Source: Omnitrophica WOR_2 bacterium GWF2_43_52 (GTDB lineage: Bacteria > Omnitrophota > Gorgyraeia > Gygaellales > UBA12090). From it: a stretch of 64,000 bases of DNA. Position numbers and translations under genes: made by a program. The stretch is taken from assembly GCA_001805445.1 (NCBI GenBank), contig MHGF01000034.1:33929-97928 (forward strand). The letters run 5' to 3'. Position 1 is the first letter of the stretch. The number at the start of each line of letters is the position of its first letter. The notes under the pieces were generated by a model, which was not told where the DNA came from, did no database searches, and worked only from the letters and a program-made list of their open reading frames with translations. Shown in pieces: positions 13,959 to 61,695 of the stretch.

Positions 13959-13977
13959 GCCAAATGTTTTTGAGAAA

Positions 13978-16133: not shown

Positions 16134-16141
16134 ATTTTCGG

Positions 16142-18110: not shown

Positions 18111-18154
18111 AAGGTTTGTAGCATGGCGTACTCAACCTACGAGGTTGAATACGG

Positions 18155-18724: not shown

Positions 18725-18727
18725 GTC

Positions 18728-19102: not shown

Positions 19103-19108
19103 ATGCCT

Positions 19109-19999: not shown

Positions 20000-20018
20000 A
20001 GATTCCTTTCCTGAAGCA

Positions 20019-21251: not shown

Positions 21252-21315
21252 GTATAGTGTGTAAGTTTATAAGTGTAAAGTGAGTAAGTATATAGGTATA
21301 AAGTGTGTGCATTTT

Positions 21316-22146: not shown

Positions 22147-22198
22147 TAAATGAGCACACAGCTTACGGAACGTAGTGAACGTAAGTTGTTGTGCGAAT

Positions 22199-24019: not shown

Positions 24020-24681
24020 TTAGTCTCAAGCTCTTTTTTTATCTGCCGTACCCACTCCCTAACCTCGTTTCCTGCTTCCTTAGGCGAGATAAATTTAAGG
24101 TAGCGGTTGTAGTAGGTTAAGGCCATTGATTTATCCTTAAGATAGCTTTCATAGAGCACGCCCAAATTATAATAGGCATCAGTATCCTTAGGGTGTAACT
24201 GGATCACTTTCTTCAAAAATTCCGCGGCTATTTTGTATTCACGGGCCTTGAGGTAGAGCATAGCGAGGTTATAATAAAGATTCGGATTTTGCGGAGCGGC
24301 TTCTATGGCTTTGGTGTAAAAGGCAAGAGACGTAGGAAGAAGCGTGTTTTCCGGTTTTTCAATGGCCGTATTCGGCAAAGCCCTTTCGGCTTTTGTTTGA
24401 GCAGGCAGATTTTGAGGCGCGTCCGGAATGTCTGCCGCGGAAACCGGAATATCTGAGGTGCCGGTAAGCAGGAACTGCGCTTTTTTAAAAGATTCGTTAG
24501 CTCCGGTATAGTTACCCTGCTCAAGGAGTTTTTTACCGGCCAGATGATATTCCCGGGATTTTTTGATTTTGTCTTCAGGGGAAATTTCCGCTTCCTGCTG
24601 GCAAAAGCAGTCACTCGCCGCGAAAAGAAAAATGATACCCGCGGTAAAAAACAAAGGCAGTAATTTATTTTTCTGTCGCAT
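24016..24681 (-). CDS. TPR-repeat protein with signal peptide (PilF/MshN-like)
   Basis: TPR-like helices (YYNLAMLYLKAREYKIAAEFLKKVIQL, YYNLGVLYESY). Confidence 0.55.
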   Translation of the reverse strand: MRQKNKLLPLFFTAGIIFLFAASDCFCQQEAEISPEDKIKKSREYHLAGKKLLEQGNYTGANESFKKAQFLLTGTSDIPVSAADIPDAPQNLPAQTKAERALPNTAIEKPENTLLPTSLAFYTKAIEAAPQNPNLYYNLAMLYLKAREYKIAAEFLKKVIQLHPKDTDAYYNLGVLYESYLKDKSMALTYYNRYLKFISPKEAGNEVREWVRQIKKELETK

Positions 24682-26323: not shown

Positions 26324-27732
26324 TTTATTGCCCGGAGATCCATTTTAAGCGGCCGCGCCGGCGAAGTGACAATATTGCTCTCATACGCCAGGAGCTGTTC
26401 ATCGGTATCTTTAATTATACGGGCGGTAACGAAAATTAGCAAGTCTGTTTTTTCCTGCGGGTTTGAGCTTGAGCCAACCTCTTTTCGGCTGAAGAAAAAG
26501 CCAAGAAGAGGAATATCCCCCAAGAAAGGAACCTTGCTTACTTTTGTAAATGATTCATCTTTAACCAAGCCGCCGATTACCACGGTTTGTCCGTCACGAA
26601 TGAGCACTTCGGTTTCTACGGTTCTCGTTGAAGTAATAGGCGCGGCGTCTTCGCCCTCGATCTTTATAAAATCGCTAATGCTGCTTACCGCGGGTTTAAG
26701 CTTTAATTTAATATGGCCATCAGGCGAGATTTGCGGAGTGACTTCTAATTCTACGCCGACCTTTTTATCTTCGGACCATCCGGTAATCTCCATTTTTCCC
26801 GTAGTATCATTTCTTTCATAAACTGGAATGGGGACATCTTTGCCTACGTGGATGAGCGCTTTTTGATTATTAAGGGTAACGACTCGCGGATTGGCGATGA
26901 GTTTCGTATCGTTACGGTTCTTCAAGAAATCCAGGATCAATTTTAAAGAGCTTGCATCAAGGGTTCCAAGGGTAAAATCACCTTTAACCGCGGTAGGAAA
27001 ACCATAGGGATGGCCAGTAGGGAAATCGGAGCCCGATGCCGGATTCGGCGGGAAGACATTTTCCATCCACCCTCTGTCTCCCTTGGGAGAAAACGGTAAT
27101 GTCATTGGCCTTTTAGCGCCGCTGGCACTCAAGGTTGTGGTCCAGTCTATGCCTAATTTATCGCTTCTGGTTAATGAGGTTTCGATAAGCTTGGTTTCAA
27201 TCAAAACCTGAAGCGTAAGCCCGTCAAGGGTGGGGAGTATTTCGGCAACTTTATTGATAACTGAGAGGATATCGGTAACAATAATAGAATTAGAACGGGA
27301 GTCCGCTTCAATAGAGCCGTCAGGAGTTAAGACTTTGGAAAGGGTCCCTTTCAAGGTCATAGCATCCGCGTTATTGAGCCGGAATAATTTAGTTTGTTTG
27401 CCTTCACGTTCTGCTTCGTCGGGAGTCGTTACCTTAATCACATTGTCTTTTTTGGCGTAGACAAAACCGTTAACCGTAATAATGGAATCAAGCGCCTCTT
27501 CAATAGAAACATTGCTCAGCTGGACGGTAACCAGGCCGCTTACTTTTTCGGAGAAGACGATGTTAAGGTTATACTGCTTGCTGAGCTGGCGCAGCACGTC
27601 TTTGATATCAAGCTCACGGAATTCCAACGATTCAATGATGTTGTCTTCGCCGGTTGCCTGCTGGCTATGAGTAAACGCCGCAGGTAAGAGCAGCGCGTAG
27701 ATGAATGCAGCTACTACCGCATACTTTTTCAC
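26320..27732 (-). CDS. secretin (GspD/PilQ/MshL-family), second copy
   Basis: Signal peptide, N-domains, secretin core VVIGGLVKDE...VPFLGDIPLLGFFF. Confidence 0.85.
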   Translation of the reverse strand: MKKYAVVAAFIYALLLPAAFTHSQQATGEDNIIESLEFRELDIKDVLRQLSKQYNLNIVFSEKVSGLVTVQLSNVSIEEALDSIITVNGFVYAKKDNVIKVTTPDEAEREGKQTKLFRLNNADAMTLKGTLSKVLTPDGSIEADSRSNSIIVTDILSVINKVAEILPTLDGLTLQVLIETKLIETSLTRSDKLGIDWTTTLSASGAKRPMTLPFSPKGDRGWMENVFPPNPASGSDFPTGHPYGFPTAVKGDFTLGTLDASSLKLILDFLKNRNDTKLIANPRVVTLNNQKALIHVGKDVPIPVYERNDTTGKMEITGWSEDKKVGVELEVTPQISPDGHIKLKLKPAVSSISDFIKIEGEDAAPITSTRTVETEVLIRDGQTVVIGGLVKDESFTKVSKVPFLGDIPLLGFFFSRKEVGSSSNPQEKTDLLIFVTARIIKDTDEQLLAYESNIVTSPARPLKMDLRAIK

Positions 27733-27765
27733 CTTTTCACCTCGTTTTGTATTTACTTCAATAGG

Positions 27766-28239
27766 TTATTCTTCAGGCAAAGTTATGTAAAAACTCTGCT
27801 CGCCTTTACGTAAGAGTACCTTGTCTTTTTCGATTTCCACCACTTCATACGCTCCCAAGGTGTCTCCCTGCTTGACAATCTCAGTATTGATAAAGGCCAA
27901 TGCTTTTTTATCTTTACCCACTGAAATGCCTTTTAGTTCAAGATGGGCTTTTTGGAATTCCTGGCTTACCTTCAGCGCGCTGAAAGGGTTTCTTCCCCAG
28001 GCTATTTGAGCGCGCTCTTTTTGCAGGGTGTCCATTTTTTTGGCCGCGTTTTCGTCTTTAACTTCCGGCATAGGGGCAGCCTTTGGCAAGCCTTGCGGTT
28101 GCGCGGGTTTTATCGCCTCTTCCGGGGCCTCGGCAACAGGCTTTTTTTTTGCCTTTCCTTTGAGGCTCCCAACAACGAGTAACGCCAAGACGCCAATAAG
28201 TACTGCGGTAATGACAATTTCCGTTTGTTGCTTGCTCAT
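27766..28239 (-). CDS. PilP-like protein (TM anchor plus PilP-type beta domain)
   Basis: C-terminal ALAFINTEIVKQGDTLGAYEVVEIEKDKVLLRKGEQSFYITL parallels that of the 16142..16597 product. Confidence 0.45.
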   Translation of the reverse strand: MSKQQTEIVITAVLIGVLALLVVGSLKGKAKKKPVAEAPEEAIKPAQPQGLPKAAPMPEVKDENAAKKMDTLQKERAQIAWGRNPFSALKVSQEFQKAHLELKGISVGKDKKALAFINTEIVKQGDTLGAYEVVEIEKDKVLLRKGEQSFYITLPEE

Positions 28240-28862
28240 ATCTCTACCACCGTAAAGGTGCTGATTAAAAGCGCTGCCACGAGTTTTTCTTCTTGCTCAG
28301 CGGTTTTATTAAAAGGTTTTTCTGCCGCAACGGATTCTTGGGAGGTGTCAGTTTTTTCCATGGTTAAACGCTCGATGATAAAGGTATTGGGCAGCTCGCT
28401 TAAGGCCTTGGTGTATTCGGCGATAGCTTGATAAGAGCCGCTTAAGATAAGTTCGATATATACTTTATTTACTCCCGGCGGCAGGATCTCGGCGCCTAAA
28501 GGTATATCCTGGCGCGGCTTGATGGAAATAACGGTAGCGTTCAATTTATTTGCCGGAAGCGCCAATAACTGGATAAGCCTCGGGATTTGGCGGCTCGTTG
28601 CCCCCATTTCTTTTAATTCCTCCGCCTTTTTTTCTATTTCTTCGCTTGCCTTTTGAGGGTTTGGAAAGCGCCGGATAAGCTCTTCTGCTTCTTTAAGCTT
28701 ATCCTGAGAAAGGGTAAATTCAGCCTTGAGTTTCTCTTGGTATTTCATGATCGGCGTGCGGATAAAAAAATAAGCAAGGGCCAAAACAATAACGCACATA
28801 ATAGCGGTAAGAGCTACTTGTATCATTTTATTCGTTTTTATTCGCGCGATAAAGGCTACCAT
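28236..28862 (-). CDS. PilO/MshJ-like bitopic protein
   Basis: Single TM, coiled coil, C-terminal domain; positioned between PilM/N-like and PilP-like genes. Confidence 0.45.
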   Translation of the reverse strand: MVAFIARIKTNKMIQVALTAIMCVIVLALAYFFIRTPIMKYQEKLKAEFTLSQDKLKEAEELIRRFPNPQKASEEIEKKAEELKEMGATSRQIPRLIQLLALPANKLNATVISIKPRQDIPLGAEILPPGVNKVYIELILSGSYQAIAEYTKALSELPNTFIIERLTMEKTDTSQESVAAEKPFNKTAEQEEKLVAALLISTFTVVEI

Positions 28863-28866
28863 AGAA

Positions 28867-30654
28867 TTAATACGTTAAGAGGCAGACAATTTCAAAGCTT
28901 GCCGTGGGAATTGCCGAATACATATCCTGTTTGGTTTTTTCCGGGACCTGGCGCACCTGCTCAAAAAACGGGGAGTCTTCAAGGGTCAGCACATACTGTG
29001 ATAGTTCCAGGTCCACGATGGTATATTTCGCCGATATTTTTCCCTCAATATGCATTTCCTTGGTGTTGACAACGGTTATTTTTGAAAAGACGACTTCCTC
29101 GGGCGTTATCGTGCCTAATTCCTTAAACGCCCCCCACCACAGCGGCTGATGGCTGCTGGTTTGCTCTAAAAGCTTTTTTCTCTGCTCGAGTTTTATATAG
29201 GTGTCGCGGTACTCGCGCGCCTTTGCCACAATGGGTTCTAATTGGCGCAACTGGATATTAATGCTATTAACGGAAGCCTTGTGTTTACGCGCATTCTTGA
29301 GAAGAATCCCGTAATACAACATGCTTAAGCCAAGGATTATCGGAACGACGATTTTTAATATGGTAATAAGAAAAAAGGCTTGCTGCTCTATTTTTTCCTT
29401 GAGCGGGAGAAGATTGATTTTAGCCCCTTTCCCCAGGCAAAGGCCAAAAGCAGCCGCCAGATGCGGCACTGCCTGCTCCATCATTAATTCCTGCCTGTAG
29501 ATGCCGGTATCTTTCCAGCCCTTGACCGCCTTTAAGGCATCGAGATTCTCAATCTTTTTTAATTCCTTTAAATTATCGAGAAAAAATTTATTGATATTCT
29601 TAAGGCGCGATGAGCCTCCGGTAAGAAATAATTCCTCTATCGCGCTCGCCTTGAAGGTAGAGGTGTAATAGGCGAGGGTACGGTTAATTTCCATGACCAG
29701 CCGTTCTAAAAGCGAGCGGAGCATTGATGAAATTTGTTCGCCTAGTATGGTGCCGAAATCGGTGAGGAATTCTATCTTTGCTTCTTCCGCGGAAGGGATG
29801 CCGCATTGGCGTTTAATCTTTTCCGCGTCTTCCTGGCTTATGGTGACGCTGCCGCTGGGAGTAGTTATGGTCCTGGCCAAGGCGCCGGTAAGATGGTCTC
29901 CGCCGACGGGTATTTCACGGGAAAAACTCAAGATACCGCCTTTATAGAAATTAAGCGTAGAGCTGTTTGCCCCCATATCCAGAATGGCTATGGATTTTTG
30001 GGGATTGATTTTTACGCAGTGAGAAAGCAGGTTACCGATGGCATCAGGGATAACGCAGAGGCCAAGCGGCCTTAGCCGCATGTCTTTTAAAAGCTGGACC
30101 TGTTCCTCAAGGGTGAAACGGTCGCAGGCAATACAGGTTACCTGGAGAATGGTGATGCCCTTTTCATCGCGCTGCTGGCCGGTAACAAAAAAATCAAAAG
30201 AAATCGTATCTAAATTAAGCTGAAACGGCAGGCGTTTTTTTAACTCCATACTGACCGCCCCGCGCAGGTCTTTTTTGTTTAACAAAGGGACATTGAGCGA
30301 AAAGATAAAAACGCCTTTACCCCAGATGGCTAAACGGCCAAGAGTGGTTTTTATCCGCGAGTTTTTAATGAATTCCTTGATAAATTCCTGAATAATCCTT
30401 TTTTTCTCGGCAGGATTGTCTTTTATCGAGCGGGGGATCGCGCGGGTAATATAATTGGCAATCAGGTAGCCTTTCGCGGTTTTCTGAAGCTGGACTATTT
30501 TAAAGGTATTTGAGCCGATATCAATACCGATGATATTCTGGGTCGCGCTAAAAAAGCTTGTGATGGGGGAAAGAATCGCTCCGAGAGAAAATTTTACCGC
30601 GGGCTTAGCGGCGGACGGATGGGCTTTTGCTTCCGTGGCATTTGGGCTATCCAT
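28867..30654 (-). CDS. PilM-like actin-fold ATPase fused to PilN-like domain (MshI-like)
   Basis: IIGIDIGSNTFKIVQLQ (PilM), then TM FFLITILKIVVPIILGLSMLYYGILL and a periplasmic domain; 595 aa. Confidence 0.7.
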   Translation of the reverse strand: MDSPNATEAKAHPSAAKPAVKFSLGAILSPITSFFSATQNIIGIDIGSNTFKIVQLQKTAKGYLIANYITRAIPRSIKDNPAEKKRIIQEFIKEFIKNSRIKTTLGRLAIWGKGVFIFSLNVPLLNKKDLRGAVSMELKKRLPFQLNLDTISFDFFVTGQQRDEKGITILQVTCIACDRFTLEEQVQLLKDMRLRPLGLCVIPDAIGNLLSHCVKINPQKSIAILDMGANSSTLNFYKGGILSFSREIPVGGDHLTGALARTITTPSGSVTISQEDAEKIKRQCGIPSAEEAKIEFLTDFGTILGEQISSMLRSLLERLVMEINRTLAYYTSTFKASAIEELFLTGGSSRLKNINKFFLDNLKELKKIENLDALKAVKGWKDTGIYRQELMMEQAVPHLAAAFGLCLGKGAKINLLPLKEKIEQQAFFLITILKIVVPIILGLSMLYYGILLKNARKHKASVNSINIQLRQLEPIVAKAREYRDTYIKLEQRKKLLEQTSSHQPLWWGAFKELGTITPEEVVFSKITVVNTKEMHIEGKISAKYTIVDLELSQYVLTLEDSPFFEQVRQVPEKTKQDMYSAIPTASFEIVCLLTY

Positions 30655-30870
30655 AGTTTATATAATTCTATCAGTTTATCTGATTATGTCAAGGTAATCA
30701 ACGGGGTATTCTGTAATCGGCCGATAAGCGGGGGAAATGGGTGGCCCCGCCGTAGGCGGGGACAGGACCCATTTTCTTGGATGCGCGGAAATAAGAAAGA
30801 AACCGTGTCTAACGCGGTAATTAAAAAACCGCTTCTTTTTGACCTTGTCAATGACCAAGCCTTCTTTGGA

Positions 30871-31122
30871 TTAGCGGCTGGCTCGCACTTTGATAATTCC
30901 CAGCTCCGCGATGATTTTCTCTTGGTTGCTCAAGACGCGGTCTAATTTTTTATCCAAGTCCTTTTGTGAGCGCGTGATGGCTGTCAGCTCTTCGAGCCTT
31001 GATTCTATATGTTGCAGGGTTTGCGGCGGTTCCGCGGGTTCTTTCTGCGCGCATAAAGTACGCAGGCTGAGCCCGGCGACACATATCAAGAAAATAACGA
31101 CAAGAAAAATTTTTTTTATCAT
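30871..31122 (-). CDS. small secreted/membrane coiled-coil protein
   Basis: Signal/TM IFLVVIFLICVAGLSL; 83 aa. Its start lies 34 bp from MITE-B copy 2. Confidence 0.3.
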   Translation of the reverse strand: MIKKIFLVVIFLICVAGLSLRTLCAQKEPAEPPQTLQHIESRLEELTAITRSQKDLDKKLDRVLSNQEKIIAELGIIKVRASR

Positions 31123-31155
31123 GGCCCATTCTCCTTCTTTAGGTAATTTAAGGTC

Positions 31156-31469
31156 CTTTCGTGAATTTTGTGATTAGAGTAGTTTGCGAAACTAATAATT
31201 TTTTCGCTCAGGACGATTTTTTCACGTCAAAAAGCCTCTCATAGTTTCGGCGACTGCGGAACTCGCCCGTCGGCTTGCGCCAGGACGGGCTCAAACATCC
31301 TCGTCGTCCGCCACTATTGCACAGTGGCGGATACCCGAAACTATTCGGGCTTTTTGCCTAAAATCGTCATTCGCTGCAAAAACTATTAGTTTCGCTATGC
31401 ACAGTGATCTTAGTGATGCCCTTGATTATCAAACAGTTATGTTACTTGCTCCACATTATTTACGAATGA
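31156..31469 (+). repeat. MITE-like repeat family B, copy 2
   Basis: Collinear with 16786-17099, including the terminal cattatttacgaatga. Confidence 0.65.
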
Positions 31470-31487
31470 ATTTAATTTCGCGTATCT

Positions 31488-32597
31488 TTATTGTTCCTGC
31501 CAGGTTGTTGACGAGAAATTCCCGGAAATGCCCATGCCGGTAGTGTCTACATACCTATCGGCATATTTAAGTTCAATATTGCCTCTGAGGTAAATAGCGG
31601 CTCCCATCAGGCCGCCTTCATTGTGTATACAATTAAAATCTATCGTTCCGTATTGCGTATAAATCAGGCCAGTAAAGTCGCGGCTTGAAGAAAGGTCCCC
31701 ATCTGGCGCAGAAGAAATAATGTTTCCGTTTTGTGTAGCCAAATTCGGAAAAGTTTCCGGCCCACCTTGTTTATTATGGGCAGAGATACTCATTTTTCCA
31801 ATTCCAATAATGGTAATGTTTCCTTCGGCAACGATACTTGTTTTTGAAAAAGTGATTTTATTGTTTCGATTAGTGCCGGTATCAATAGTGACATTTCCCG
31901 TAACGTAATAAAATTTGTTGTTATAACTGTTCTCTGCAAAAGTAGAAGAGCCGTTAGTGTAGTTGCATTGATTGCCGCAGGTTTTAGCATAATCTTCAAA
32001 ATACGTCATATTAATCGCGGGGATGCTGGTTGGCCCGACAATAGCAGTTGCATTTGAAGGCGGAGGAAAGGTCCAATCTTCGTCTTCATTGATCGTTGCA
32101 TCACTATCATCCCCTTCAAAATTTGGCGAGGCGATAGTTCCGTTGACGCTTATAGAATAACCGCTGGTATTATTCCAGTCAAACCTGTCTCCTCCTGCCG
32201 CGACGTTACTAAAGCCTCCCTGGGTAAGCGTAAGGTTTACCTGCCGCAGCGCGCGGTAGTTTGCCTGAGAAGGAACGTAACCTGTTGTAATAACAGTGAG
32301 TGCGTTGCCTGAGGAGGTGCAGTTACAGGCGTATTGCCCTGGCCCAAATGTGTGAGTTACATTGGTAATATTCGTGCAGTTAAAATTCCGGGAGAGTTGG
32401 TTTTGCGCCCATTGCGCTCCGGCCTCGGCTATATTGAGTGCTTGTTCAGAATTAAGGGTACGCAGGTTTATTTCAAAATCGCCGGACTCAAGATTGAGTA
32501 ATGCCCAGCCCAGAATGCTAAAAACCAGCATCGCGAAGATGACGATGATCAGGGCGGCCGCTTTATTATTACCGTGTATATTGCTAAATTGATTCAT
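31488..32597 (-). CDS. PilX-like minor pilin, Asn-rich with many N-x-S/T sequons
   Basis: MNQFSNIHGNNKAAALIIVIFAMLVFSILGWALL is paralogous to the N-terminus of the 8975..9415 product. About 15 NxS/T sequons in 369 aa. Confidence 0.45.
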   Translation of the reverse strand: MNQFSNIHGNNKAAALIIVIFAMLVFSILGWALLNLESGDFEINLRTLNSEQALNIAEAGAQWAQNQLSRNFNCTNITNVTHTFGPGQYACNCTSSGNALTVITTGYVPSQANYRALRQVNLTLTQGGFSNVAAGGDRFDWNNTSGYSISVNGTIASPNFEGDDSDATINEDEDWTFPPPSNATAIVGPTSIPAINMTYFEDYAKTCGNQCNYTNGSSTFAENSYNNKFYYVTGNVTIDTGTNRNNKITFSKTSIVAEGNITIIGIGKMSISAHNKQGGPETFPNLATQNGNIISSAPDGDLSSSRDFTGLIYTQYGTIDFNCIHNEGGLMGAAIYLRGNIELKYADRYVDTTGMGISGNFSSTTWQEQ

Positions 32598-32639
32598 TGT
32601 TAAATTGTTAAACGATCATTGGTAAATCTAATAACCTTA

Positions 32640-32745
32640 ATTAATTGTTTGCCCACAGTATCCTTGGCAAAATAATTCCATTTAAGCATAGTTTCCCGCA
32701 TATAATTTGATAAATTAAAAGCAATTATATGCGTACGTATATCTT
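32640..32745 (-). pseudogene. truncated remnant (N-terminal ~35 codons) of a four-helix-bundle gene paralogous to 9426..9797
   Basis: Nucleotide collinearity between 32640-32745 and 9690-9800 (ttgtttgcccacagtatccttggcaaaataattccattt.. versus ttgtctacccacggtatctttagcaaaataatcccattt..). Minus-frame translation ..LKDIRTHIIAFNLSNYMRETMLKWNYFAKDTVGKQLIK, then a stop. Confidence 0.5.
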
Positions 32746-32999
32746 TTAACTCCAGCAGTTTAGCAATTTAACCATGTAACAATTTAATTCCATCACTTTA
32801 ACTCCAGCAGTTTAACAATGTAGCCATGTAACAATTTAATTCCGTCACTTTAACTCCAGCAGTTTAACAATGTAGCCATGTAACAATTTAATTCCGTCAC
32901 TTTAACTCCAACAGTTTAACAATGTAACCATGTAACAATTTAATTCCGTCACTTTAACTCCAGCAGTTTAACAATGTAGCCATTTAACAATTTAATTAA
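32741..32999. repeat. tandem array, 5 copies of a 52-53-bp unit carrying the pilin 5' motif
   Basis: Unit ctttaactccagcagtttaacaatgtagccatgtaacaatttaattccgtca starts at 32745, 32798, 32850, 32902 and 32954. It contains catggctacattgttaaa (minus strand), identical to the start-codon region of the 10955..11479 gene. Confidence 0.8.
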
Positions 33000-33553
33000 A
33001 GGTTTCTCGGATACACCTTTGTTTTTATTGTCTTAGACTGCGTGCCCGACTGAAACGTCGCGTTAATATCTATCCGATAGACATCGGTCGCGGTAGGCGC
33101 GACAAGCGGCGTCGTAATAAGCTGGTTAGTTTTATTGTAATAACTAAAGGTGAAATTGTTTACCCCTGCGGCAAGGATGTCGGTATTACGCAGTAAATTA
33201 TTGCCTGATACTTGATAGGAAATTGACGTGCTCTTGGTGTCAGTAAACTGTAATTGCCAGGCGCTGGCGGCTGCAAGCGAGTCGGCATCCCGCATCTGCC
33301 GTATTTCCCTTGACATTCTCATCAGCGCCAGCCTTCCCTGCGAAATCACTTCATTACGAAAGGAAAGGAAACGCCAGAGATTAACGGTTTCTCGGATATA
33401 GAGCGACGAGATGCCGGTTAAGATTCCCACGATAACGATTACCGTAATCAGTTCAATCAGGGTTACGGCTTTGGTTGAGTTTTTTTTACTCGTTTTCTTT
33501 TGTGTTGTCATATAAAGATACAGAGAGTACTGAAAAAATACCTTTTTACACAA
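32996..33553 (-). CDS. type IV prepilin-like minor pilin (FimT/PilW-like)
   Basis: ...NSTKA|VTLIELITVIVIVGILTG. The likely start is the internal MTTQKK at about 33511. Confidence 0.65.
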   Translation of the reverse strand: MCKKVFFQYSLYLYMTTQKKTSKKNSTKAVTLIELITVIVIVGILTGISSLYIRETVNLWRFLSFRNEVISQGRLALMRMSREIRQMRDADSLAAASAWQLQFTDTKSTSISYQVSGNNLLRNTDILAAGVNNFTFSYYNKTNQLITTPLVAPTATDVYRIDINATFQSGTQSKTIKTKVYPRNL

Positions 33554-33602
33554 AGTCGTGTTTACCTTAATTTTTCAGCAACCTCATACATTAAGTTTGC
33601 GC

Positions 33603-34199
33603 TTAATGCGCGCTTATAATTGTAGTCATCGCGGTATCATTAGTAAGGCCGCGGCCTGATACCGAAACCGTTACCTGTTTATAACAACATTCATTACAGC
33701 TGGTGCAATTGTTTATTGCTCCGCAGGTAGCCGTGGTGCAGGCTTGCCAGGCGGTATTATTGAGTACTGCGTACTGGATGTTTACTGTTCGATTGTATCC
33801 TGTGACCGGGATATCCGTAGCGTTACGGAAATCATCAATATCATCCCAATTGTCTCTTGCCGCGGCGGTTTCATTAGTCACATTGTTTAAGCCTTTTGTG
33901 GTGTTGTCGATTCCAAGGTTCGTGCTCCAGGGAGCGGCCGTATTCTCGTCAAAGCGTTTTGTTCTTATTTCTTCCATAAGCTCTTGGGTGTAAAATGCCG
34001 CGTCCGCGAGCGCCTCCGAACGACCCGAGCGCCAGGCGACATTTGCCCACATATTCAGTAGCGGAGGAATAGCCACCCCCAGGACAACAATGATAACGAT
34101 AATTTCAATAAGGGTGAGGCCGCTTGCTTTTTTTTTCCGCGATTTTAAATTCAAAAAGGTAATCCTCATAGAATATGTTTTCTGTAAGTTAATCACCAA
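33603..34199 (-). CDS. type IV prepilin-like minor pilin, Cys-rich and sequon-rich C-terminal domain
   Basis: ...KKKASG|LTLIEIIVIIVVLGVAI. Eight NxS/T sequons; cluster CTTATCGAINNCTSCNECC. Confidence 0.65.
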   Translation of the reverse strand: MVINLQKTYSMRITFLNLKSRKKKASGLTLIEIIVIIVVLGVAIPPLLNMWANVAWRSGRSEALADAAFYTQELMEEIRTKRFDENTAAPWSTNLGIDNTTKGLNNVTNETAAARDNWDDIDDFRNATDIPVTGYNRTVNIQYAVLNNTAWQACTTATCGAINNCTSCNECCYKQVTVSVSGRGLTNDTAMTTIISAH

Positions 34200-34270
34200 T
34201 AATCAAGATACAATAACCATATAATAAACAATCACCAATTTACCAATATTTAAATAGTTTTGTTGTTTGG

Positions 34271-34513
34271 ACATTAGTACATTGTTACATAAGTTTTTAA
34301 AATAGCTGTAAAAATGGGTGGCCGGGTTGTGTTTGAGCGGGGCGTACGGAAATTTCTGCGGCTTGGACTCCGCCGCAGGCGGAGCGCAGAAATTTACGCC
34401 GAGTGAGGCTTGCCGCAGGAGCAAGCCGAACGTCCCCGCGAAAACATAACCTGGACAGGACCCATTTTTACCATCATATCTATCAAAGAACTTATGTAAC
34501 AATGCATTAGGTA
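34271..34513 (-). repeat. MITE-like repeat family A, copy 3 (inverted orientation)
   Basis: Core is the reverse complement of the 4973-5150 core (gagcggggcgtacggaaatttctgcg...). TIRs cattagtacattgttacataagtt / aacttatgtaacaatgcattagg are homologous to the copy 1 TIRs. Confidence 0.6.
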
Positions 34514-34609
34514 TTGGAATTTATTTGGTAATTGTATTTTGGTTATTGATTATTGTATACTCTTATAATTTCTTTTCCATTTTAACCTGCAACCTGTGGC
34601 CTGTGGCGG

Positions 34610-35143
34610 TTATTCCACCCGCACCCTTCCCGTGTTAGGGTTTACATAGAGTGTAGAATTGTTTCCCTTATAGATAAAATTTACCCAACCATCACTGCTT
34701 AAATTTGTTCCGGTCGCGTTTTGAGGAATCCCTTCCCAGTTAAAACGCAAGGTAGCTCCTCCTCCAAAGTTAGCCGCGGTGATGTTGATGCCGTTATAGT
34801 AAGGGTCTATTCTAAAATTCACCGTAAGATTAGCCTTAGTGAAAGGATCGGGAATTGCCACCCAGGCATTGCTTCCCTGGGGAGATTCCTCCTCAGCCGC
34901 ATAGGTATCGATTGTTTCGTCAAAGATAATCCTGCAATTGGTATGCTTAGCGATAGCGATTTGCTGGACAAAACGGACATTTTGGGTGATTTTTTTGAGC
35001 GCGCCGCTAAACTGAATCATGGCAAAGCCGGCGATACGGGGAAGCGCTATCATGGCGATGATGCCGATAATGACTATCACCATAATAAGCTCAATAAGGG
35101 TAAAAGCGCCGGGAAGGGTTTTCTTTTTTATCCTAAGGTTCAT
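34610..35143 (-). CDS. type IV prepilin-like protein
   Basis: MNLRIKKKTLPGA|FTLIELIMVIVIIGIIAMIALP; 177 aa. Confidence 0.7.
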   Translation of the reverse strand: MNLRIKKKTLPGAFTLIELIMVIVIIGIIAMIALPRIAGFAMIQFSGALKKITQNVRFVQQIAIAKHTNCRIIFDETIDTYAAEEESPQGSNAWVAIPDPFTKANLTVNFRIDPYYNGINITAANFGGGATLRFNWEGIPQNATGTNLSSDGWVNFIYKGNNSTLYVNPNTGRVRVE

Positions 35144-35239
35144 AATTACTTTATTTTATGTTGTTTACGCGTAAATAGCAAGCAAAAAAGGCAAAAAAAT
35201 ATTACAAAACGCGGTATTTATGGTATAGTATCTTTCACT

Positions 35240-36352
35240 ATGGCGGAAAAACAAAAAAATATCATGGAAGATATCGCCCGCGATTTTATCAAGCATTCTC
35301 TGACGATGCGCTATGATATTTGCACCTGTGGGCAATGCAAAGAGGATATGGTTGCGTCAGCGCTTACCACTCTTCCTGTTGAGAATGTTCCGCTACAGGC
35401 GGTATCGGCTTCGCTCATAGACGAGACAAAGCTTAAGTATAAGGCAGAGCTTGCCCGGGCAATGTTTAACGCTATAGATATGGTAAGTAAAAACCCCAGC
35501 CATAAGCTTACCGAAGACAGAATTGAATCATTTCGGTTGTTGCTTAATAATATTCTTGAAGATAGAGGCCTTGATTTCAGGCAGTATAACCAGGGGGTAA
35601 TCAGGCGCAAGGTCGGATATAGAATGCATATGAACGGAGTAAGTTCTTATGGCGAATACGCGCGGTTTTTAAGAAAAAGCCCTGATGAGTATGAAAAAAT
35701 GCTAGAGGCCTTATGTATTAACGTCACCGAATTTTTCCGCGATATGGAGGTGTGGGTAACCATACGCTATCTTTTGGAAACCCTCATTAATCAAAAAAAA
35801 CTCAAAGGCCATAACACCCTGCGCATATGGTCGGCGGGCTGCTCAAGCGGCGAAGAACCGTATTCTCTGGCCATTGTGCTTAAGGAATTATTAAAGGCGG
35901 GGCTCAAAAATTTCTCTTTTGAACTCTACGCCACCGATATTGACAAAAAATGTTTATTGATGGCCAGCGATGGGGTGTACCCAAAAAATAACCTGAAGAA
36001 TGTGGAGGAAAAATATCTCAAGAGTTATTTTACCCTTCTTGGCGACGGAAATTACCGCATAAAAGAAGAAATAAAAAACATGGTGAAATTTCAGTATCTG
36101 GATTTGATAAAGCAGGATTTTTTAAGGGAAACCGATGTTATTGTGTGCCGGAATGTCTTTATTTATTTTAACCGCGAGCTCCAAGAGCAATTGCTGAAGA
36201 AATTCTATTTTTCGTTATGCCCCGGAGGGTATTTAATTAAAGGTAAGGCCGAGACCATTATCAATGAGGCAAGTGGATACCATTTTGAGGATGTGGACAC
36301 CAATGCCCGTATTTATAGAAAGCTCATACCTACAGATAGCCTAGTAAAGTAA
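35240..36352 (+). CDS. ComFB-like domain fused to CheR-type SAM-dependent methyltransferase
   Basis: N-terminus MAEKQKNIMEDIARDFI...YDICTCGQCKEDMVASALTTLP..KNPSH has the ComFB Cys cluster and ALN.LP motif. Then a CheR fold (VTEFFRD..LRIWSAGCSSGEEPYSLAIVL..ELYATDID..VIVCRNVFIYF). The ORF-track start at 34721 is a spurious upstream extension. Confidence 0.7.
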   Translation: MAEKQKNIMEDIARDFIKHSLTMRYDICTCGQCKEDMVASALTTLPVENVPLQAVSASLIDETKLKYKAELARAMFNAIDMVSKNPSHKLTEDRIESFRLLLNNILEDRGLDFRQYNQGVIRRKVGYRMHMNGVSSYGEYARFLRKSPDEYEKMLEALCINVTEFFRDMEVWVTIRYLLETLINQKKLKGHNTLRIWSAGCSSGEEPYSLAIVLKELLKAGLKNFSFELYATDIDKKCLLMASDGVYPKNNLKNVEEKYLKSYFTLLGDGNYRIKEEIKNMVKFQYLDLIKQDFLRETDVIVCRNVFIYFNRELQEQLLKKFYFSLCPGGYLIKGKAETIINEASGYHFEDVDTNARIYRKLIPTDSLVK

Positions 36353-36491
36353 CGGCGCGCTCTCTTAGGTGTGTGTATTAAAAGATGCAAAAACTTTTCT
36401 CACAAGGCTCGCTTTAGAGGTTACTGAAAAATTAAGGTAAACACGAATTTGTGTAAAAAGGTATTTTTTCAGCACCCTCATTCTATTTTGC

Positions 36492-36520
36492 TTGACAAAA
36501 AATGCTTTAATTTTATAATG
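36492..36520 (+). promoter_or_regulatory. consensus sigma70-type promoter TTGACA-17-TATAAT
   Basis: ttgaca at 36492-36497, 17-nt spacer, tataat at 36515-36520. About 205 nt upstream of the REC-GGDEF start. Confidence 0.5.
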
Positions 36521-36725
36521 AAAAGATATGTTGTTTTCTTTTTGAAAGAAAATGTTTTATTAAGACAGCGATTTTTTTAGCAAGAAAATGCGCTTTTGGG
36601 AAAATAGGATTGTAACACTATGGTTTGCAGCGTATTGTAACTCAAAGGAAACAGAAATCGCCAGAACTTATTTTTACAAAAGTATAGTGTTATAAGCGAT
36701 TTGATGCTTCAATAACGGGATTACT

Positions 36726-37661
36726 ATGAGCGATTCTGATGGCAGCATCTTAGTTTTAGTAGAAGATAACCCTACGCAAGAATTATTATCGGGGCTTCTT
36801 CAGGGTGAAGGTTATGCTATAATTACCGCGCATAGCCAAATCGAGGCGTTAGATATTTTGAGCCGGCAATCCTTTAGCCTGGTAATTTTGGATTTTGAAA
36901 GTTCGCGTATTAAAGGGATTGAGTTTTGCAAAACGATACGTAAAAATTTCAGGCTGCGCCATATCAATTTGATCCTTTTAATGGCCAATAAAGACCCTTT
37001 AAATAAAATTAAGGGTATTTACGCGGGAGCGGATGATTATATCGATAAACCAATCGATTCCGCGGAATTTTTAGCGCGGGTAAAGGCCTCGCTTGTGCGC
37101 ATGACCAGGGATTTGGACGCGAATCCTTTAACGAAGCTGCCCGGTAATTTCTCCTTATTGAGGGAATTGGAAGAAAGGACAAAAGCCCATGCCCCTATGG
37201 CAGTAGGGTATTTGGACTTAAGCAAATTTAAGGAATTCAACGACCGCTATGGTTTTGAAAAGGGAGACCATGTCATTGCCCATACGGCAAGCATTATCAG
37301 TAAAACCTTGGAGGAAATGGGCAATTCCACGGACTTCTTAGGCCATGTTGGAGGCGATGATTTCATTTTCATTACCACTCCTGATTGCCTGGACGCGGTG
37401 TGCAAGAAGATCATCGGCGATTTTGATACAAGTATCCTCTCTTTTTATGATGAAGAGGACAGGAAGCGGGGTTATATTGTTACCAAAAACAGAATGGGCC
37501 AAATATCCAAAGTTCCTATTATGACCGTTTCTATTGGTATCGCAACCAACGAATGCCGGAAATTTTCTCATATCGGCGAGATAATTCAGGTGTTTACAGA
37601 GCTGAAAAATTACGCCAAGACCTTAGGCAAAAGTATCTATGTAAAGGACAGGCGCAAATAG
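36726..37661 (+). CDS. response regulator receiver fused to GGDEF domain (motif GGDDF)
   Basis: REC domain ([20 protein letters not shown]), GGDEF fold ([30 protein letters not shown]). Confidence 0.8.
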
Positions 37662-37850
37662 GAAGATACTGTAAATATCCCGCCTCGCCTGCCTCGCCGG
37701 CAGGCGGGTAAGCTGTGCTAAAATTTCGATTCGATGATTTTAGCGCATTCGGCGGGATCAATTCCGGCAAACAACTTATGACGCTCGTACAAAAATAAAG
37801 GTTTCCCGTTTAACGGCAGGCATAAGTTGTGTCGTCATTGAGGAGGCGCG

Positions 37851-38156
37851 ATGGACGAAAAGCGTAAATACAGAAGGACTCCCGCCAGGGAAAAGGCATT
37901 TTTAAAATGCAAAGAAAATAATTCGCACGAGGGTGAGCTTATGGATGTCAGCTCGGGAGGCTTGCGTATGCTTTCGGCAGATAAGGTTAAAGTGGGAAGC
38001 ACGCTTACCGGGAAGTTTAAAATTATGCCGCAGATGGGAAGTTTTTATATATCAGGCGAGGTTATATGGGTGAAGCCGATGGCCAGTGAATCAAATCAGG
38101 CAGTGTATGAAGTAGGGATAAAATTTAATAAAGTAAGCACAATTCCTTCAGAATAA
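37851..38156 (+). CDS. PilZ domain protein
   Basis: RKYRRTPAR (RxxxR) and DVSSGGLRM (DxSxGG); 101 aa. Confidence 0.7.
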   Translation: MDEKRKYRRTPAREKAFLKCKENNSHEGELMDVSSGGLRMLSADKVKVGSTLTGKFKIMPQMGSFYISGEVIWVKPMASESNQAVYEVGIKFNKVSTIPSE

Positions 38157-38249
38157 CCTTTTTTATAGATACACTAAAAATCCATAAAAAGAAACTCCGT
38201 TAGAAAAAAACTAACGGAGTTTCTTTTTTACAACGTCATTGAAAGCGCG

Positions 38250-39584
38250 TTAGAACGCGTATATTGCTTCTAAAGCTATAGTATCCTGATGATCGCCGGA
38301 TTTAGGCGGCGTGTAAGGGCTAAAGATATTAGAGCTTGATTCATCATAGCGGTACTCTAAGCGGGTAATCAGGTCTTTATACGGCCTTAGCTCAAAGGTA
38401 AAGGTCGTTTCCCAGATGTCCTGGGGATTTCCCGCGGTAAGCCTCAGGCCCTGAGGGTCGCTGAAGAATTCAGTCCTGCTGATGAGGCTTATCTTATCGG
38501 TCATATCGTACTTTACATACCCTGCCACCCCGCTCCATGCGCCGTCTTTTCCCGCGGTTACGGCATCTTCATCATGGGCGTAATCGGCATTGAGCATAAG
38601 GGTCCACTTCGGATGCAGCTTATAGATGGTAACGAAGTCTATAAGTGCTCGTTGGGAATGGTTATTGGTGGTTTGTTCCGGGCCGTACATCCCGGCTAAG
38701 TTAAAAGAAAGCTTATCGGTCGCTGTCCAGCCAAGAGCGGCTTCTACGGACTTAGCGTTATTATTATCTTTGACATTATCCCAGCCGTTGACTAACCCTA
38801 GATAACTACTTAATTTTTCAGTAAGCTGATACCCAGCGCGGATACCGGTATGGGTAAACGGTATGGCATAGCCGAAGAGGAGCCCCCGGCTAAAGTTCCA
38901 GTTGTCTTTTGCCTCAATTACCTCAGAGCCGTGCATCGTCACGAATTTCCCAATCTTTATCCACTGCCAATGCCCAAAAGGCAGGTTAAAACCATTAGGC
39001 TTTAACTGGATATACGCCTGTTCAAGGTCAAATTGATCCCTGGCTGAACCATTGGGAGTGATAACCTCCGCGTCTGAACCAAAGTAGAGGTCAGTGCGAA
39101 AACCTGCCCCTCCTTCATCAGGCGGAAGCTTTTCCATAACCAGCTCAGCGGCACGCACATTGAAATTATTGGCTTCGGTATCAAACACCCGGGCAGGATT
39201 GGTAGCGCCGGTCGTTGAGCTTGTGTCGGGATTTTGGGCGTTATAGGTATAGCTGGTATCCACAAATCCGCTTATGTTGATACCCTTTAACAGATCCATC
39301 GTCTGGGTTACCGCTTCTTTTCTTTTATCAAGCGCTGCCTGCACCTTCTTTTCAACGATCTCTTCCCCGATTTTGCTTGCCTCAAGGGTAGACTGCATCT
39401 CCAGCTTCCTGTTTAAGGACTCTACCTTTTTCTCTAAGGCGTCAATCCTGTTTAGAAGTGTTTTTGTTTTTTCGTCTGCCTCATCGGCAAAGGCAAAAAC
39501 CTGCATTGATACCACAAGAGCGATAATAAGTAGAAGCTTCTGTTTAAAGAAAAAACCATGGGATAATACTTTTTGTTTTTTCAT
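38250..39584 (-). CDS. outer-membrane beta-barrel protein (porin-like) with N-terminal coiled coil
   Basis: Signal peptide, coiled coil, alternating amphipathic strands, C-terminal ...ALEAIYAF. Confidence 0.5.
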   Translation of the reverse strand: MKKQKVLSHGFFFKQKLLLIIALVVSMQVFAFADEADEKTKTLLNRIDALEKKVESLNRKLEMQSTLEASKIGEEIVEKKVQAALDKRKEAVTQTMDLLKGINISGFVDTSYTYNAQNPDTSSTTGATNPARVFDTEANNFNVRAAELVMEKLPPDEGGAGFRTDLYFGSDAEVITPNGSARDQFDLEQAYIQLKPNGFNLPFGHWQWIKIGKFVTMHGSEVIEAKDNWNFSRGLLFGYAIPFTHTGIRAGYQLTEKLSSYLGLVNGWDNVKDNNNAKSVEAALGWTATDKLSFNLAGMYGPEQTTNNHSQRALIDFVTIYKLHPKWTLMLNADYAHDEDAVTAGKDGAWSGVAGYVKYDMTDKISLISRTEFFSDPQGLRLTAGNPQDIWETTFTFELRPYKDLITRLEYRYDESSSNIFSPYTPPKSGDHQDTIALEAIYAF

Positions 39585-39617: not shown

Positions 39618-40100
39618 TTAGCGGATAATTGTTTTAATAGCCTCGATTTCTTCGGAAGAAAGTACCTCCGCCAAATCTATTAAAATAAGCAGGCGCTCAT
39701 TTCCTAATTTCCCTATTCCCTTGATACAGCCATGCTGGCTAATGCCGCCAAGGATATGGGGAATGTCTTCAATATCATCTTGGGGAAGCCGCAGGACCTC
39801 GGTAACTTCGTCAACAATCATTCCCACAATATTCTTTTCTATCTCTACAACGACAATCCTCGTTTTTTCCGAATGAGGCTTGCCTTTAAGATTGAGCCGT
39901 TTGGCAAGGTCTATAATAGGCAGTATCCTGCCGCGCAGGTCTATAAGCCCCTCAACAAAACTGGATACTTTGGGCAGGGGGGTTATAGCGGTAAGCTTGA
40001 TAATCTCAATTACCTGGCGTATCTCTACGCCAAAATCCTCATTGCCGATAGCAAAGATGGCTAATTGCAATTCGTGGGATTCCGCGGAAGATTTCTCCAT
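39618..40100 (-). CDS. cheW: chemotaxis coupling protein CheW
   Basis: EDFGVEIRQVIEIIKL..LIDLRGRILPIIDLAKRL..GMIVDEVTEVLRL. Confidence 0.85.
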   Translation of the reverse strand: MEKSSAESHELQLAIFAIGNEDFGVEIRQVIEIIKLTAITPLPKVSSFVEGLIDLRGRILPIIDLAKRLNLKGKPHSEKTRIVVVEIEKNIVGMIVDEVTEVLRLPQDDIEDIPHILGGISQHGCIKGIGKLGNERLLILIDLAEVLSSEEIEAIKTIIR

Positions 40101-40168
40101 CAGGGATTTTTTTATACTCCTTGATTATCAATAAATCTTTTATAACTGCCGCTCGTATACGCTAAGGC

Positions 40169-41914
40169 TTACAGCTTAAATTTGGTCACCATGTTTTTAA
40201 GTGATAGAGAAAGATTAGAAAGCTCCTGCGCGGACGCTGACATTTCTTGCATTGAGGCAGTCTGTTCCTCGGTTGAGGAAGAAACCTCTTCCGCGGTTGC
40301 CGCTGATTCTTTGGCAATGCTGGAGACGTCGTTAACAGCCTTAGAAACGAGCTCATTATCTTTTACCTGCTGCTGCATAGAAGTAGATATCTGATTTGCC
40401 ATGGCGTTGACTTCTTGCACAGCCTTGTTGATCTCGCCGAGGATATCGGTTATCTTGGTTACTTCGGCTCTGCCTTCCTGCACTTCTTTGGAACTTGCCT
40501 GTATGGCGCTGACTGCTTCCTGAGTCTCTGACTGAATGGATTTAATGAGTTTTCCAATCTTTCGCACTGCCTCGGCAGAGCCTTCGGCAAGCTTTCGCAC
40601 CTCTTCGGCGACAACCGCGAAGCCGCGTCCTGCTTCACCGGCTCGCGCTGCCTCGATGGCCGCGTTTAATGCCAGAAGATTGGTTTGGTCGGCGATAGAA
40701 GTAATGGTATCGGTGATTTCACCGATAGCCTGGGATTTTTCTCCCAAGCCCTGGATGACTTTCGCGGTTGAGACAACCGTGTCCGCGAGCCGGGTGATCT
40801 TTTCCACCGCTTCCTGGGCCGCGGTTTTTCCGTTCTGGGCGTAATTTGAGGCTTGGTTTACCGCGCTTGAAGTGCTTTGGGCATTAGCTACCGCTTGTTT
40901 TAAGTTTACCGATGACCTTTCCATTGCCAGGGAAGTCTGCGAGCTCTTTTCTGCCTGGGTGCTGGCGCCTTTGGCAACATTGTTGATGGCGGTAGATACT
41001 TCCTGGGTTGAGGCATTCATTTCTTCCGCAGAGCTGGATAGTTCTTGCGATGACGAGGCAACTTTATCCGCGGTTGAGCGCACCTCAAGGAATATCGCGC
41101 GGAGTGAGTCTAAAAGTTTGTTGAACACCTCGCCAAGCCTGCCGAGTTCGTCTTGAGAGCTTATCTTTATCTTATCCGCGGTCAGGTCTCCCTGGGCTAT
41201 TCGTTCCGCGGTAGCAACTACCTGTTGCAAAGGAAGCGTAATTTGGCGGATGATTAACACGCAGATGATGAGGATTAAGACAATGTCTCCAAGGCCAATC
41301 ATAATCAAAAGGAAGGTCCTCCATCTGATGGTAGCTGTCCCGCGCTGCTCATCAACTTTGTTTCTTTCGATGGACATAGAAACCACCTTGTCAACGCCGA
41401 CGCGGTGCTCTTCGTATTTTTCATTGAGAAAAGTTTTGGCTAATTCCCGCGCCTTATCCTTTTCACCCTTTTGAATGAGAGGAATGAATTCATCAAAGAA
41501 TTTCTTATGGAATTCAATAGCCGGATTATACGAAAGGCTGATGATCGCGTCTCTGAGTTCTTTATCCGTTGCCAGATCTCCAAAACTTTCAGAGATCCAG
41601 TACTCATGGCGGGTGTCGTATTCGCTTTTTAAGAATTTGGCATTTTCAATGAGCTTCTCAATCTTTACGGAATTTGTTTCATCAAGAAGCTGAAGGCTGA
41701 TGAGATAGGTTTCAATGATATATTCAGGTGGAGGAAGGACATCCGCGATAAGGTCTTTTCCCTGCACAATCCTCTTATAGAGGGGGCCGTTGACCTTTAC
41801 CGTGTTCAATGTCCAATACGACATTATCCCAAAGATAAAAAACCCTAGTATTGATACCCCAGCCAGCAGCATCAGGCGCAGCTTTATGCTAAGGCCTTTG
41901 ATTACATTCATCAT
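40169..41914 (-). CDS. methyl-accepting chemotaxis protein (TM, HAMP, MA domain)
   Basis: [25 protein letters not shown]; signalling hairpin [33 protein letters not shown]. Confidence 0.9.
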
Positions 41915-53689: not shown

Positions 53690-53692
53690 CGC

Positions 53693-54742: not shown

Positions 54743-54904
54743 ACCCGCATTGTAGTTTCTTACGCATTCCCTTATGAAACTTTCATGCCCCGCTAAAGGC
54801 GCGGGGCACTAAAGAGAATGAAAATTAGGATACCCCCGAGGTGCAACGTGTTGCTCTTTTGGGGTGAATGATGGTTATATCGGTGATTATGGTAATCCGG
54901 ACAG

Positions 54905-55127: not shown

Positions 55128-55154
55128 GCGGGTTTAGAATAAGGAGATTTTCGA

Positions 55155-60141: not shown

Positions 60142-60144
60142 GGA

Positions 60145-61682: not shown

Positions 61683-61695
61683 GGTAGGGTTCCTG

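Follow-up and report, generated by a model that had tools for sequence, protein, structure and literature searches.

ComFB–CheR fusions and adjacent comFB–cheR gene pairs in Omnitrophota and their linkage with type IV pilus and chemotaxis genes

Control of chemoreceptor methylation by a cyclic-dinucleotide receptor is known from Pseudomonas aeruginosa, where the single-domain PilZ protein MapZ, when loaded with cyclic di-GMP (c-di-GMP), binds and inhibits the methyltransferase CheR1 and suppresses the methylation of several methyl-accepting chemotaxis proteins (MCPs) (PMC6370697; PDB structures 5XLY, 5Y4R, 5Y4S). Proteins of another receptor family, ComFB/CdgR, bind c-di-GMP and act via partner proteins with c-di-GMP-sensitive binding (Samir et al., PNAS 2025, PMC12448109; bioRxiv 10.64898/2026.03.27.713163). 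Published members of this family regulate motility and pilus functions through such partners, and ComFB of Bacillus subtilis inhibits flagellar motility. Some proteins of Omnitrophota, e.g., UniProt A0A1G1PT98, have been reported to couple ComFB with CheR (PMC12448109). Here, we describe a gene encoding such a ComFB–CheR fusion, along with an unfused comFB–cheR pair, in a 64,000-nt stretch of the genome of Omnitrophica WOR_2 bacterium GWF2_43_52 (contig MHGF01000034.1, positions 33,929 to 97,928 of the forward strand), further referred to as the window.

The window contains exactly two genes for ComFB and two for CheR, which are paired in both instances, once by fusion and once by adjacency, as had been claimed in a preliminary description of this DNA. 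Domain identities, recurrence of the pairing, synteny and residue conservation are directly observed. At about even chances, and by analogy with MapZ, we suggest that ComFB would provide input to CheR as part of a chemosensory system linked to pili, in trans where comFB is a gene of the che operon and in cis within the fusion. The general idea of a cyclic-dinucleotide receptor feeding receptor methylation, put forward in the preliminary description, is reasonable, but its statement that no such route is described was wrong, as c-di-GMP-loaded MapZ already inhibits CheR1 in P. aeruginosa (PMC6370697); neither is the fusion itself novel, being listed for Omnitrophota in PMC12448109.

Domain composition and recurrence of the ComFB–CheR pairing

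The fusion gene (Table 1) encodes a ComFB domain followed by CheR_N and the S-adenosylmethionine (SAM)-binding domain of CheR. The ComFB model is covered completely (positions 1–83 of 83) at 36.2 bits with the cut-off of 25. As a plain sequence search of the N-terminal domain against PDB yields no significant match (E-value 0.87 to 4WAI), profile and fold methods were needed for its identification. Comparison of the profile of 24 fused N-terminal domains with that of 30 stand-alone ComFBs (hhalign) gives 99.7% probability with E-value 1e-25 over 86 columns. The full-length AlphaFold2 model (pLDDT, the predicted local distance difference test, 87.9; predicted template modelling score 0.76) returned methyltransferases alone in Foldseek, and the ComFB domain was therefore modelled separately. 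The model of residues 1–95 has pLDDT of 88.7, and its sole significant matches in PDB are B. subtilis ComFB (4WAI, template modelling score 0.66–0.73) and Synechocystis CdgR (8HJA). The motifs ICTCGQCKEDM, ALTTLP and KNPSH, on which the preliminary assignment to ComFB relied, are all present in the translation, and this assignment holds in both Pfam and hhalign; the other domain calls (CheR_N, CheR, receiver (REC), GGDEF and PilZ) likewise agree with the open reading frame (ORF) list and Pfam.

The full-length model superposes on 5FTW (E-value 6e-22), 1AF7/1BC5 and CheR1 of P. aeruginosa (5XLY). Arginine R167 of the FFRD motif is invariant across 41 family members; its assumed catalytic role is that of the equivalent residue in Salmonella CheR. 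Also invariant in these proteins are D233 and Y309, which align to D144 and Y222 of CheR1, known to bind SAM (PMC6370697). Given the superposition on CheR folds and the invariance of the SAM-binding residues, the CheR part of the fusion looks intact as an enzyme. The scores against the enterobacterial CheR equivalog NF007902 are 139 bits for the fusion and 144 bits for the operon CheR, below the cut-off of 435, and both are classed as distant CheR homologues, not members of this equivalog.

The N-termini of 40 homologues coincide with a start at 35240 and support it over the longer ORF starting from TTG at 34721 (34721–36352), annotated as a 543-aa protein in the public call P0001, which we rejected as over-extended by 173 codons. 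This call also runs into the prepilin gene encoded on the other strand.

Homologues of the fusion were searched for among 5.8 billion proteins clustered at 90% identity. At least 115 of the best 120 clusters combine ComFB, CheR_N and CheR, with identity of 46–71% and length of 353–413 aa, and 41 fusion proteins were aligned end to end. All named homologues come from Candidatus Omnitrophota, except one labelled Deltaproteobacteria, and are annotated as “ComFB family protein” or “CheR family methyltransferase.”

Genomic loci (denoted by L-numbers) were identified on contigs with CheR-only peptide patterns, and all locus counts are lower bounds. An unfused comFB is found directly upstream of cheR in seven che operons (L013, L053, L072, L087, L088, L089, L091). 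In one more, L011, a cheC gene lies between the two, so that the pair is present in at least eight further che operons, L011 included. The recurrence that the preliminary description had made a test of its proposal is thus seen for fusions and adjacent genes alike. For three of these operons (L013, L053, L072), “full-length” tblastn matches had suggested fusions and proved to be adjacent comFB and cheR genes. Among the matches listed, approximately 64 CheR loci belong to other phyla, and no ComFB gene occurs within 10 kb of any of them. The L011 operon encodes a stand-alone 85-aa ComFB (5133–5390), located upstream of cheC and cheR, with the fused-type motif ALSRLP, in which the Asn40 position is occupied by Ser; this protein may be intermediate between free and fused ComFB.

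The unfused pair of the window consists of ComFB87 and CheR282, named by their lengths. Among 78 close relatives of ComFB87 nearly all are 87–91 aa long, and all named ones belong to Omnitrophota. The adjacency of comFB and cheR at the far end of the window, noted in the preliminary description, was confirmed with the gap of 11 rather than 12 nt. The suggested order, an operon ending in cheR and followed by comFB, had to be reversed: as the genes lie on the minus strand, comFB precedes cheR and is located in mid-operon, and cheR is not the last gene. The observed order is x253 (the truncated FtsA/MreB-like gene of Table 1)–comFB–cheR–cheY–cheD–cheB–cheC–cheW, and the typical operon has the composition CheY–CheC–CheA–(FtsA-like, about 712 aa)–ComFB–CheR–CheY–CheD–CheB–CheC/X–CheW. 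The names of the genes from cheY to cheW in the window also rest on the gene order of the Pfam-annotated operons L087–L089 and L091.

The protein of about 712 aa has an FtsA/MreB-like actin fold and a C-terminal beta-grasp region with faint similarity to ThiS, and is conserved between cheA/cheX and comFB in che operons of Omnitrophota (L013, 63–1976; L088, 5743–7881; L089, 5808–7952; L091, 7857–9998). An actin-like ATPase within a che operon is unusual.

The fusion aligns to residues 5–87 of ComFB87 (37% identity) and then to residues 6–275 of CheR282 (40%), and the summed length of the two proteins, 87 + 282 = 369 aa, nearly equals the 370 aa of the fusion. This collinearity is consistent with the origin of the fusion by read-through of an adjacent comFB–cheR pair. 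In a rough neighbour-joining tree, constructed without support values, the CheR domains of all fusions group in a single clade and the CheRs of che operons in another, which suggests a single origin of the fused CheR. Moreover, L002, L003, L081 and L083 each carry a tandem pair of fusion paralogues, transcribed divergently from the pilus cluster. The tandem copies fall into separate subclades of the same rough tree, which suggests an old duplication.

Table 1. Coordinates of the main features of the window.
Feature	Position (nt)	Strand	Basis or remark
ComFB–CheR fusion gene, 370 aa	35240–36352	+	Pfam, hhalign, AlphaFold2, Foldseek
ComFB (PF10719) in the fusion, residues 6–86	35255–35497	+	Pfam
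CheR_N (PF03705) in the fusion, residues 97–148	35528–35683	+	Pfam, 35 bits
CheR SAM-binding domain (PF01739) in the fusion, residues 161–345	35720–36274	+	Pfam, 192 bits
Stand-alone ComFB, 87 aa (ComFB87)	62940–63203	-	Pfam, 89 bits; PDB sequence matches 4WAI, 8HJA
Operon CheR, 282 aa (CheR282)	62080–62928	-	Pfam; 40% identity with the fused CheR
CheY, CheD, CheB, CheC, CheW, downstream of cheR	59025–62067	-	Translations; BLAST orthology to L072/L013 genes
C-terminal 253 aa of FtsA/MreB-like protein of about 712 aa, beta-grasp tail	63233–63994	-	Just upstream of comFB; runs off the window
MSHA-like type IV pilus cluster, divergent from the fusion	17274–35143	-	Pfam
Prepilin-like gene, divergent from the fusion	34610–35143	-	ORF list, Pfam
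Promoter-like TTGACA-16-TATAAT, 12/12 matches	36492–36519	+	Consensus match only
Receiver + GGDEF protein, GGDDF motif	36726–37661	+	Pfam
Single-domain PilZ protein (PilZ101)	37851–38156	+	Pfam
CheW	39618–40100	-	Pfam
MCP with HAMP	40169–41914	-	Pfam
Second MCP, candidate substrate	50694–52799	+	

Pilus genes and other neighbours of the fusion

The fusion gene is indeed divergent from a prepilin gene, as stated in the preliminary description, and this gene belongs to a type IV pilus cluster resembling that of the mannose-sensitive haemagglutinin (MSHA) pilus. In the order of transcription, the cluster comprises four prepilin-like genes (35143 to 31488), genes for PilM-N and PilO, a small ORF, genes for a secretin, a coiled-coil protein and a tetratricopeptide repeat protein, and then those for an MshEN-T2SSE ATPase, AAA_22, T2SSF, a histidine kinase, PilZ, REC and MshEN-PilZ. 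The same cluster is divergent from the fusion in at least nine contigs (L001, L002, L003, L081, L083, L085, L086, L090 and the contig of homologue P0003). In other loci, the fusion directly follows a gene for a PilB/MshE-like ATPase (L006, L009), lies near a prepilin peptidase gene (L005), is followed by a PilZ gene (L004) or by genes for CheY and CheA (L010), or has housekeeping neighbours only (L007, L008). Che operons are found near pilus genes as well: contig JBHPKO010000001.1 carries, in this order, the fusion, the pilus cluster, MshEN-PilZ with a pilin, and a che operon with comFB–cheR, while the che operons of L088 and L089 abut pilus genes and REC-GGDEF genes. The conserved association is that of ComFB/CheR with the type IV pilus and not with the GGDDF gene.

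The preliminary description had included the downstream REC-GGDDF and PilZ genes in the signalling unit of the fusion. Among the loci listed, these genes follow the fusion in its closest clade only (the P0003 contig, 69% identity; L085, 61%; L086, 57%); we therefore rejected them as core partners, the conserved partner being the pilus cluster. In this clade, a local c-di-GMP signal would be produced by REC-GGDDF and sensed by PilZ.

The GGDDF motif, initially described as possibly degenerate or weakly active, deviates from the canonical [G/A/S]G[D/E]E[F/Y]. Still, it need not indicate loss of activity: it is conserved in five subfamily sequences (among them those of the window, L085, L086 and L088b), the equivalents of PleD D327, N335 and D344, including KGD, are retained, and activity has been demonstrated for the GGDDF enzyme GSU1937 (PMC8835794). 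The receiver domain has the Asp phospho-acceptor, and no RxxD inhibitory site is seen in the alignment. Diguanylate cyclase activity of this protein is possible. A Hypr GGDEF enzyme producing cyclic GMP-AMP (cGAMP) was considered and rejected: the base-specificity position is occupied by Asp, not Ser, so the expected product is c-di-GMP rather than cGAMP. PilZ101 has both signature motifs, RxxxR (RKYRR) and DxSxxG (DVSSGG), conserved in its orthologues.

The REC-GGDEF-like subfamily has two forms. One combines GGDDF with the Asp phospho-acceptor (36726–37661 in the window; L088, 14080–15039); the other, encoded next to che operons, has QDDDY or RDDDF and a Glu acceptor (L088, 1441–2379(-); L089, 984–1937(-)), and its members are probably pseudo-receiver, non-catalytic versions.

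Two further groups of genes were noticed in the window. A second type IV pilus or type II secretion-like cluster at 5242–16597(-), judged from ORF sizes and N-terminal sequences only, contains candidate prepilins, a PilB-like ATPase (12282–13958), a PilC-like gene and a possible secretin; the ATPase encoded directly before the fusion in L006 and L009 has an N-terminal sequence resembling that of this PilB-like protein. Between the fusion locus and the che operon lies a haem/sirohaem biosynthesis cluster (53126–58905(+)). As the same genes are also found next to the fusion or to the che operon of relatives (L085, 5193–10903; L089, 12425–16264), the wider synteny is conserved.

Ligand-site residues and possible roles of ComFB

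In B. subtilis ComFB (BsComFB), c-di-GMP is contacted by Asp33, Asn40, Arg/Lys41, Ala36, Leu37, Val47 and Tyr55, and Asn4, Glu7, Asp33, Asn40 and Tyr46 are involved in dimerization (PMC12448109). ComFB87 retains N5, E8, C26, C28, C31, D34, A37, N41, R42, Y47, I48, F56 and H87, that is, every published ligand and dimer residue and the zinc site, and looks like a competent receptor. To describe the two families, we counted residues, in BsComFB numbering, in 78 stand-alone ComFBs and 119 fused domains. In the stand-alone family N4, E7, D33, N40, R41, Y46 and Y/F55 are conserved at or near 100%.

The zinc site is common to both groups, with three Cys and His88 essentially invariant. In the fused domain C28, C30 and C33 (Cys25, Cys27 and Cys30 of BsComFB) are invariant, as is H88 replacing Cys88, and together they form a predicted metal site; D26 and P86 are invariant too, and the dimer residues N7 and E10 are nearly so. 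The fused domain keeps most dimer residues, and the copy from the window lacks two of them (Asn40 and Tyr46).

We infer ligand binding, the effect on methylation and the substrate from these data and from the analogy with MapZ, as follows. In the che operon, ComFB87 would act in trans on CheR282 as an adaptor dependent on c-di-GMP, possibly also on c-di-AMP, in the role played by MapZ. At the pilus locus, a second CheR paralogue carries ComFB covalently, in cis. As the fusion is divergent from and adjacent to the MSHA-like pilus cluster, it most likely methylates MCPs of a pilus-linked chemosensory pathway. The fused ComFB may in part serve for dimerization or for pairing with the free ComFB. 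Such ligand-dependent control of CheR is proposed from the genomic linkage, seen as both fusion and adjacency.

The window offers candidate substrates. A CheW–MCP gene pair (39618–41914), situated 3.3 kb downstream of the fusion, past the PilZ gene and a gene for a porin, is the nearest candidate locus, and another MCP is encoded further downstream (Table 1). The two MCPs differ in their N-terminal sensor regions and share a long, near-identical signalling domain, which suggests a recent duplication or gene conversion. In their translations, neither C-terminus has an NWETF-like pentapeptide.

Several observations weigh against this proposal. At position 40, invariably Asn in the stand-alone proteins (78/78), the fused domains have Ser (94 of 119), Ala (13), Thr (7) and only once Asn; Tyr55 is retained in ten of the 119 fused domains, compared to Tyr or Phe in 76 of the 78 stand-alone ones; and Asp33, present in 77/78 stand-alone proteins, is absent from 22 fused domains, including the whole deep subclade of L006–L010. 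The fused domain of the window keeps Asp33 (D36), but has T43 and T44 at positions 40 and 41, N49 at position 46 and no aromatic residue at position 55, and thus lacks the complete published set of c-di-GMP contacts. In BsComFB, the dissociation constant for c-di-GMP rises from 0.17 uM to 12.6 uM (about 70-fold) in the D33A mutant and to 5.0 uM (about 30-fold weaker binding) in N40A (PMC12448109). Further, many fusion loci have no MCP gene within 10 kb, and the REC-GGDDF and PilZ genes are absent from most of them. Co-transcription with the fusion is also questioned by the 373-bp gap that separates it from the REC-GGDDF gene and holds the promoter-like sequence TTGACA-16-TATAAT.

These residue losses lower our confidence in c-di-GMP binding by the fused domain, not in its membership in the ComFB fold. 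With Asn40 and Tyr55 lost, ligand affinity is probably weakened or altered, and ligand sensing by the fused copy is uncertain. Hence the cyclic-dinucleotide occupancy of the fused ComFB, on which the signalling scheme of the preliminary description depended, should not be assumed, as the published contact residues are lost, unlike in the stand-alone copy.

The fusion and REC-GGDDF genes are probably transcribed separately, and the arrangement suggests that REC-GGDDF and PilZ form their own transcription unit. The number of promoter-like sites around the locus does not exceed the expectation from shuffled sequences. Scans with Rfam of the whole window and of the 34400–38400 region identified no c-di-GMP riboswitch and no other family. 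The gap is unusually long in the window: in the P0003 contig and L085, the two relatives for which it was measured, it is only about 130–140 bp.

The strongest competing explanation, in our view possible though tentative, is that the fused ComFB senses no nucleotide and is a zinc-stabilised dimerization or docking module, making CheR bivalent or tethering it to the receptor array or the pilus machinery. It would then replace the pentapeptide tether, with c-di-GMP input provided solely by the free ComFB, PilZ proteins and MshEN domains. Such a role would account for the invariance of the Cys3-His site, D26 and P86 and the near-invariance of N7 and E10 alongside the family-wide replacement of Asn40 and Tyr55 and the loss of Asp33 in the deep subclade, and agrees with the MCPs of the window ending without an NWETF-like sequence. 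On the other hand, the fused domains keep Asp33 in 97/119 cases, Arg or Lys at position 41 in 80/119 (Arg in 77/78 stand-alone proteins) and Tyr46 in 106/119 (78/78). Ser can still form a hydrogen bond, the N40A mutant still binds at 5 uM, and affinities within the family range from 0.17 to 284 uM with variable contact residues (PMC12448109).

Less probable, indeed unlikely, is that the fused enzyme methylates a component of the type IV pilus or its regulator instead of MCPs. In favour of this, the neighbour conserved beside the fusion is the pilus cluster, and neither MCP nor che genes occur within 10 kb of most fusion loci. However, the protein has the full CheR_N and CheR architecture with the motifs specific to CheR, shares 40% identity with CheR282, and its model fits CheR structures; one fusion resides in a CheY–CheA operon (L010), and the window has the MCP–CheW pair nearby. 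Besides, we know of no CheR homologue with an established non-MCP substrate. Finally, that the pairing has no functional meaning, being a gene-calling or assembly artefact or a one-off adjacency, as might be suspected from the mis-started P0001 call and from “full-length” tblastn matches that were two adjacent genes, is refuted by continuous two-domain proteins of 355–396 aa in at least 115 clusters, with 41 of them aligned end to end, and by the comFB–cheR order, conserved in at least eight che operons; the approximately 64 CheR loci listed from outside Omnitrophota have no ComFB gene within 10 kb.

A bolder form of the MapZ-like proposal appears to us speculative, and we hold it with clearly less confidence than the proposal itself. 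ComFB would be a second, independently evolved cyclic-dinucleotide adaptor for CheR, hard-wired by fusion into the CheR paralogue linked to the MSHA-like pilus; the change of Asn40 to Ser would reflect a shift in ligand affinity or specificity, or heterodimerization with the free, ligand-competent ComFB; and pilus behaviour would adapt via second-messenger-controlled receptor methylation.

Comparison with known systems

Since the fusion is already published and control of CheR by c-di-GMP is known, the finding is a useful lead and not a new kind of pathway. A literature search on pili and chemotaxis of Omnitrophota yielded nothing relevant. New here are the conserved pilus synteny, the recurrent comFB–cheR pair, the collinearity consistent with a gene-pair origin, and the family-wide loss of Asn40 and Tyr55. 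The value is limited in that the architecture has been published and we infer each functional step. If the proposal is true, c-di-GMP has been linked to chemoreceptor adaptation at least twice, via the unrelated receptor folds PilZ and ComFB, and the recently defined ComFB family gains its first enzymatic partner, and the regulation of type IV pili in uncultured Omnitrophota its first handle. With the fused and unfused pairs, candidate MCP substrates, a candidate cyclase and PilZ in one genome, the window also provides a compact set of proteins for in vitro work.

With regard to pilus chemotaxis, the fusion may be likened to PilK, the CheR of the Pil-Chp system and a pilus-chemosensory CheR paralogue existing beside another CheR in the same genome. 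PilK differs in having no ComFB domain and in being encoded within pilGHIJK-chp, whereas the fusion gene stands alone beside structural pilus genes. PilJ is not a substrate of CheR1 (PMC6370697).

The fusions reported by Samir et al. share with the protein of the window the architecture, ComFB (PF10719) and CheR (PF01739), and the phylum. The main text of PMC12448109 lists the architecture only and has no comment on function, pilus synteny, comFB–cheR adjacency or Asn40. The described ComFB/CdgR proteins (4WAI, 8HJA) have the same fold and zinc site, and ComFB87 keeps all their published ligand and dimer residues, while the fused domain has Ser, Thr or Ala instead of Asn40. Their known partners are the transcription factors SyCRP1/2 or unnamed flagellar targets, not CheR.

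From MapZ and CheR1, the systems of Omnitrophota differ in the receptor fold, a PilZ beta-barrel in the former and a helical zinc-binding ComFB in the latter. Moreover, MapZ is never fused to CheR1 and acts in a flagellar pathway, while the context here is that of the type IV pilus. What the two share is, first, the presence of single-domain PilZ genes, which occur near the fusion and terminally in related che operons, and, second, the logic: in P. aeruginosa, a small dedicated c-di-GMP receptor controls CheR and hence the methylation of MCPs, and the same is proposed for ComFB87 acting on CheR282.

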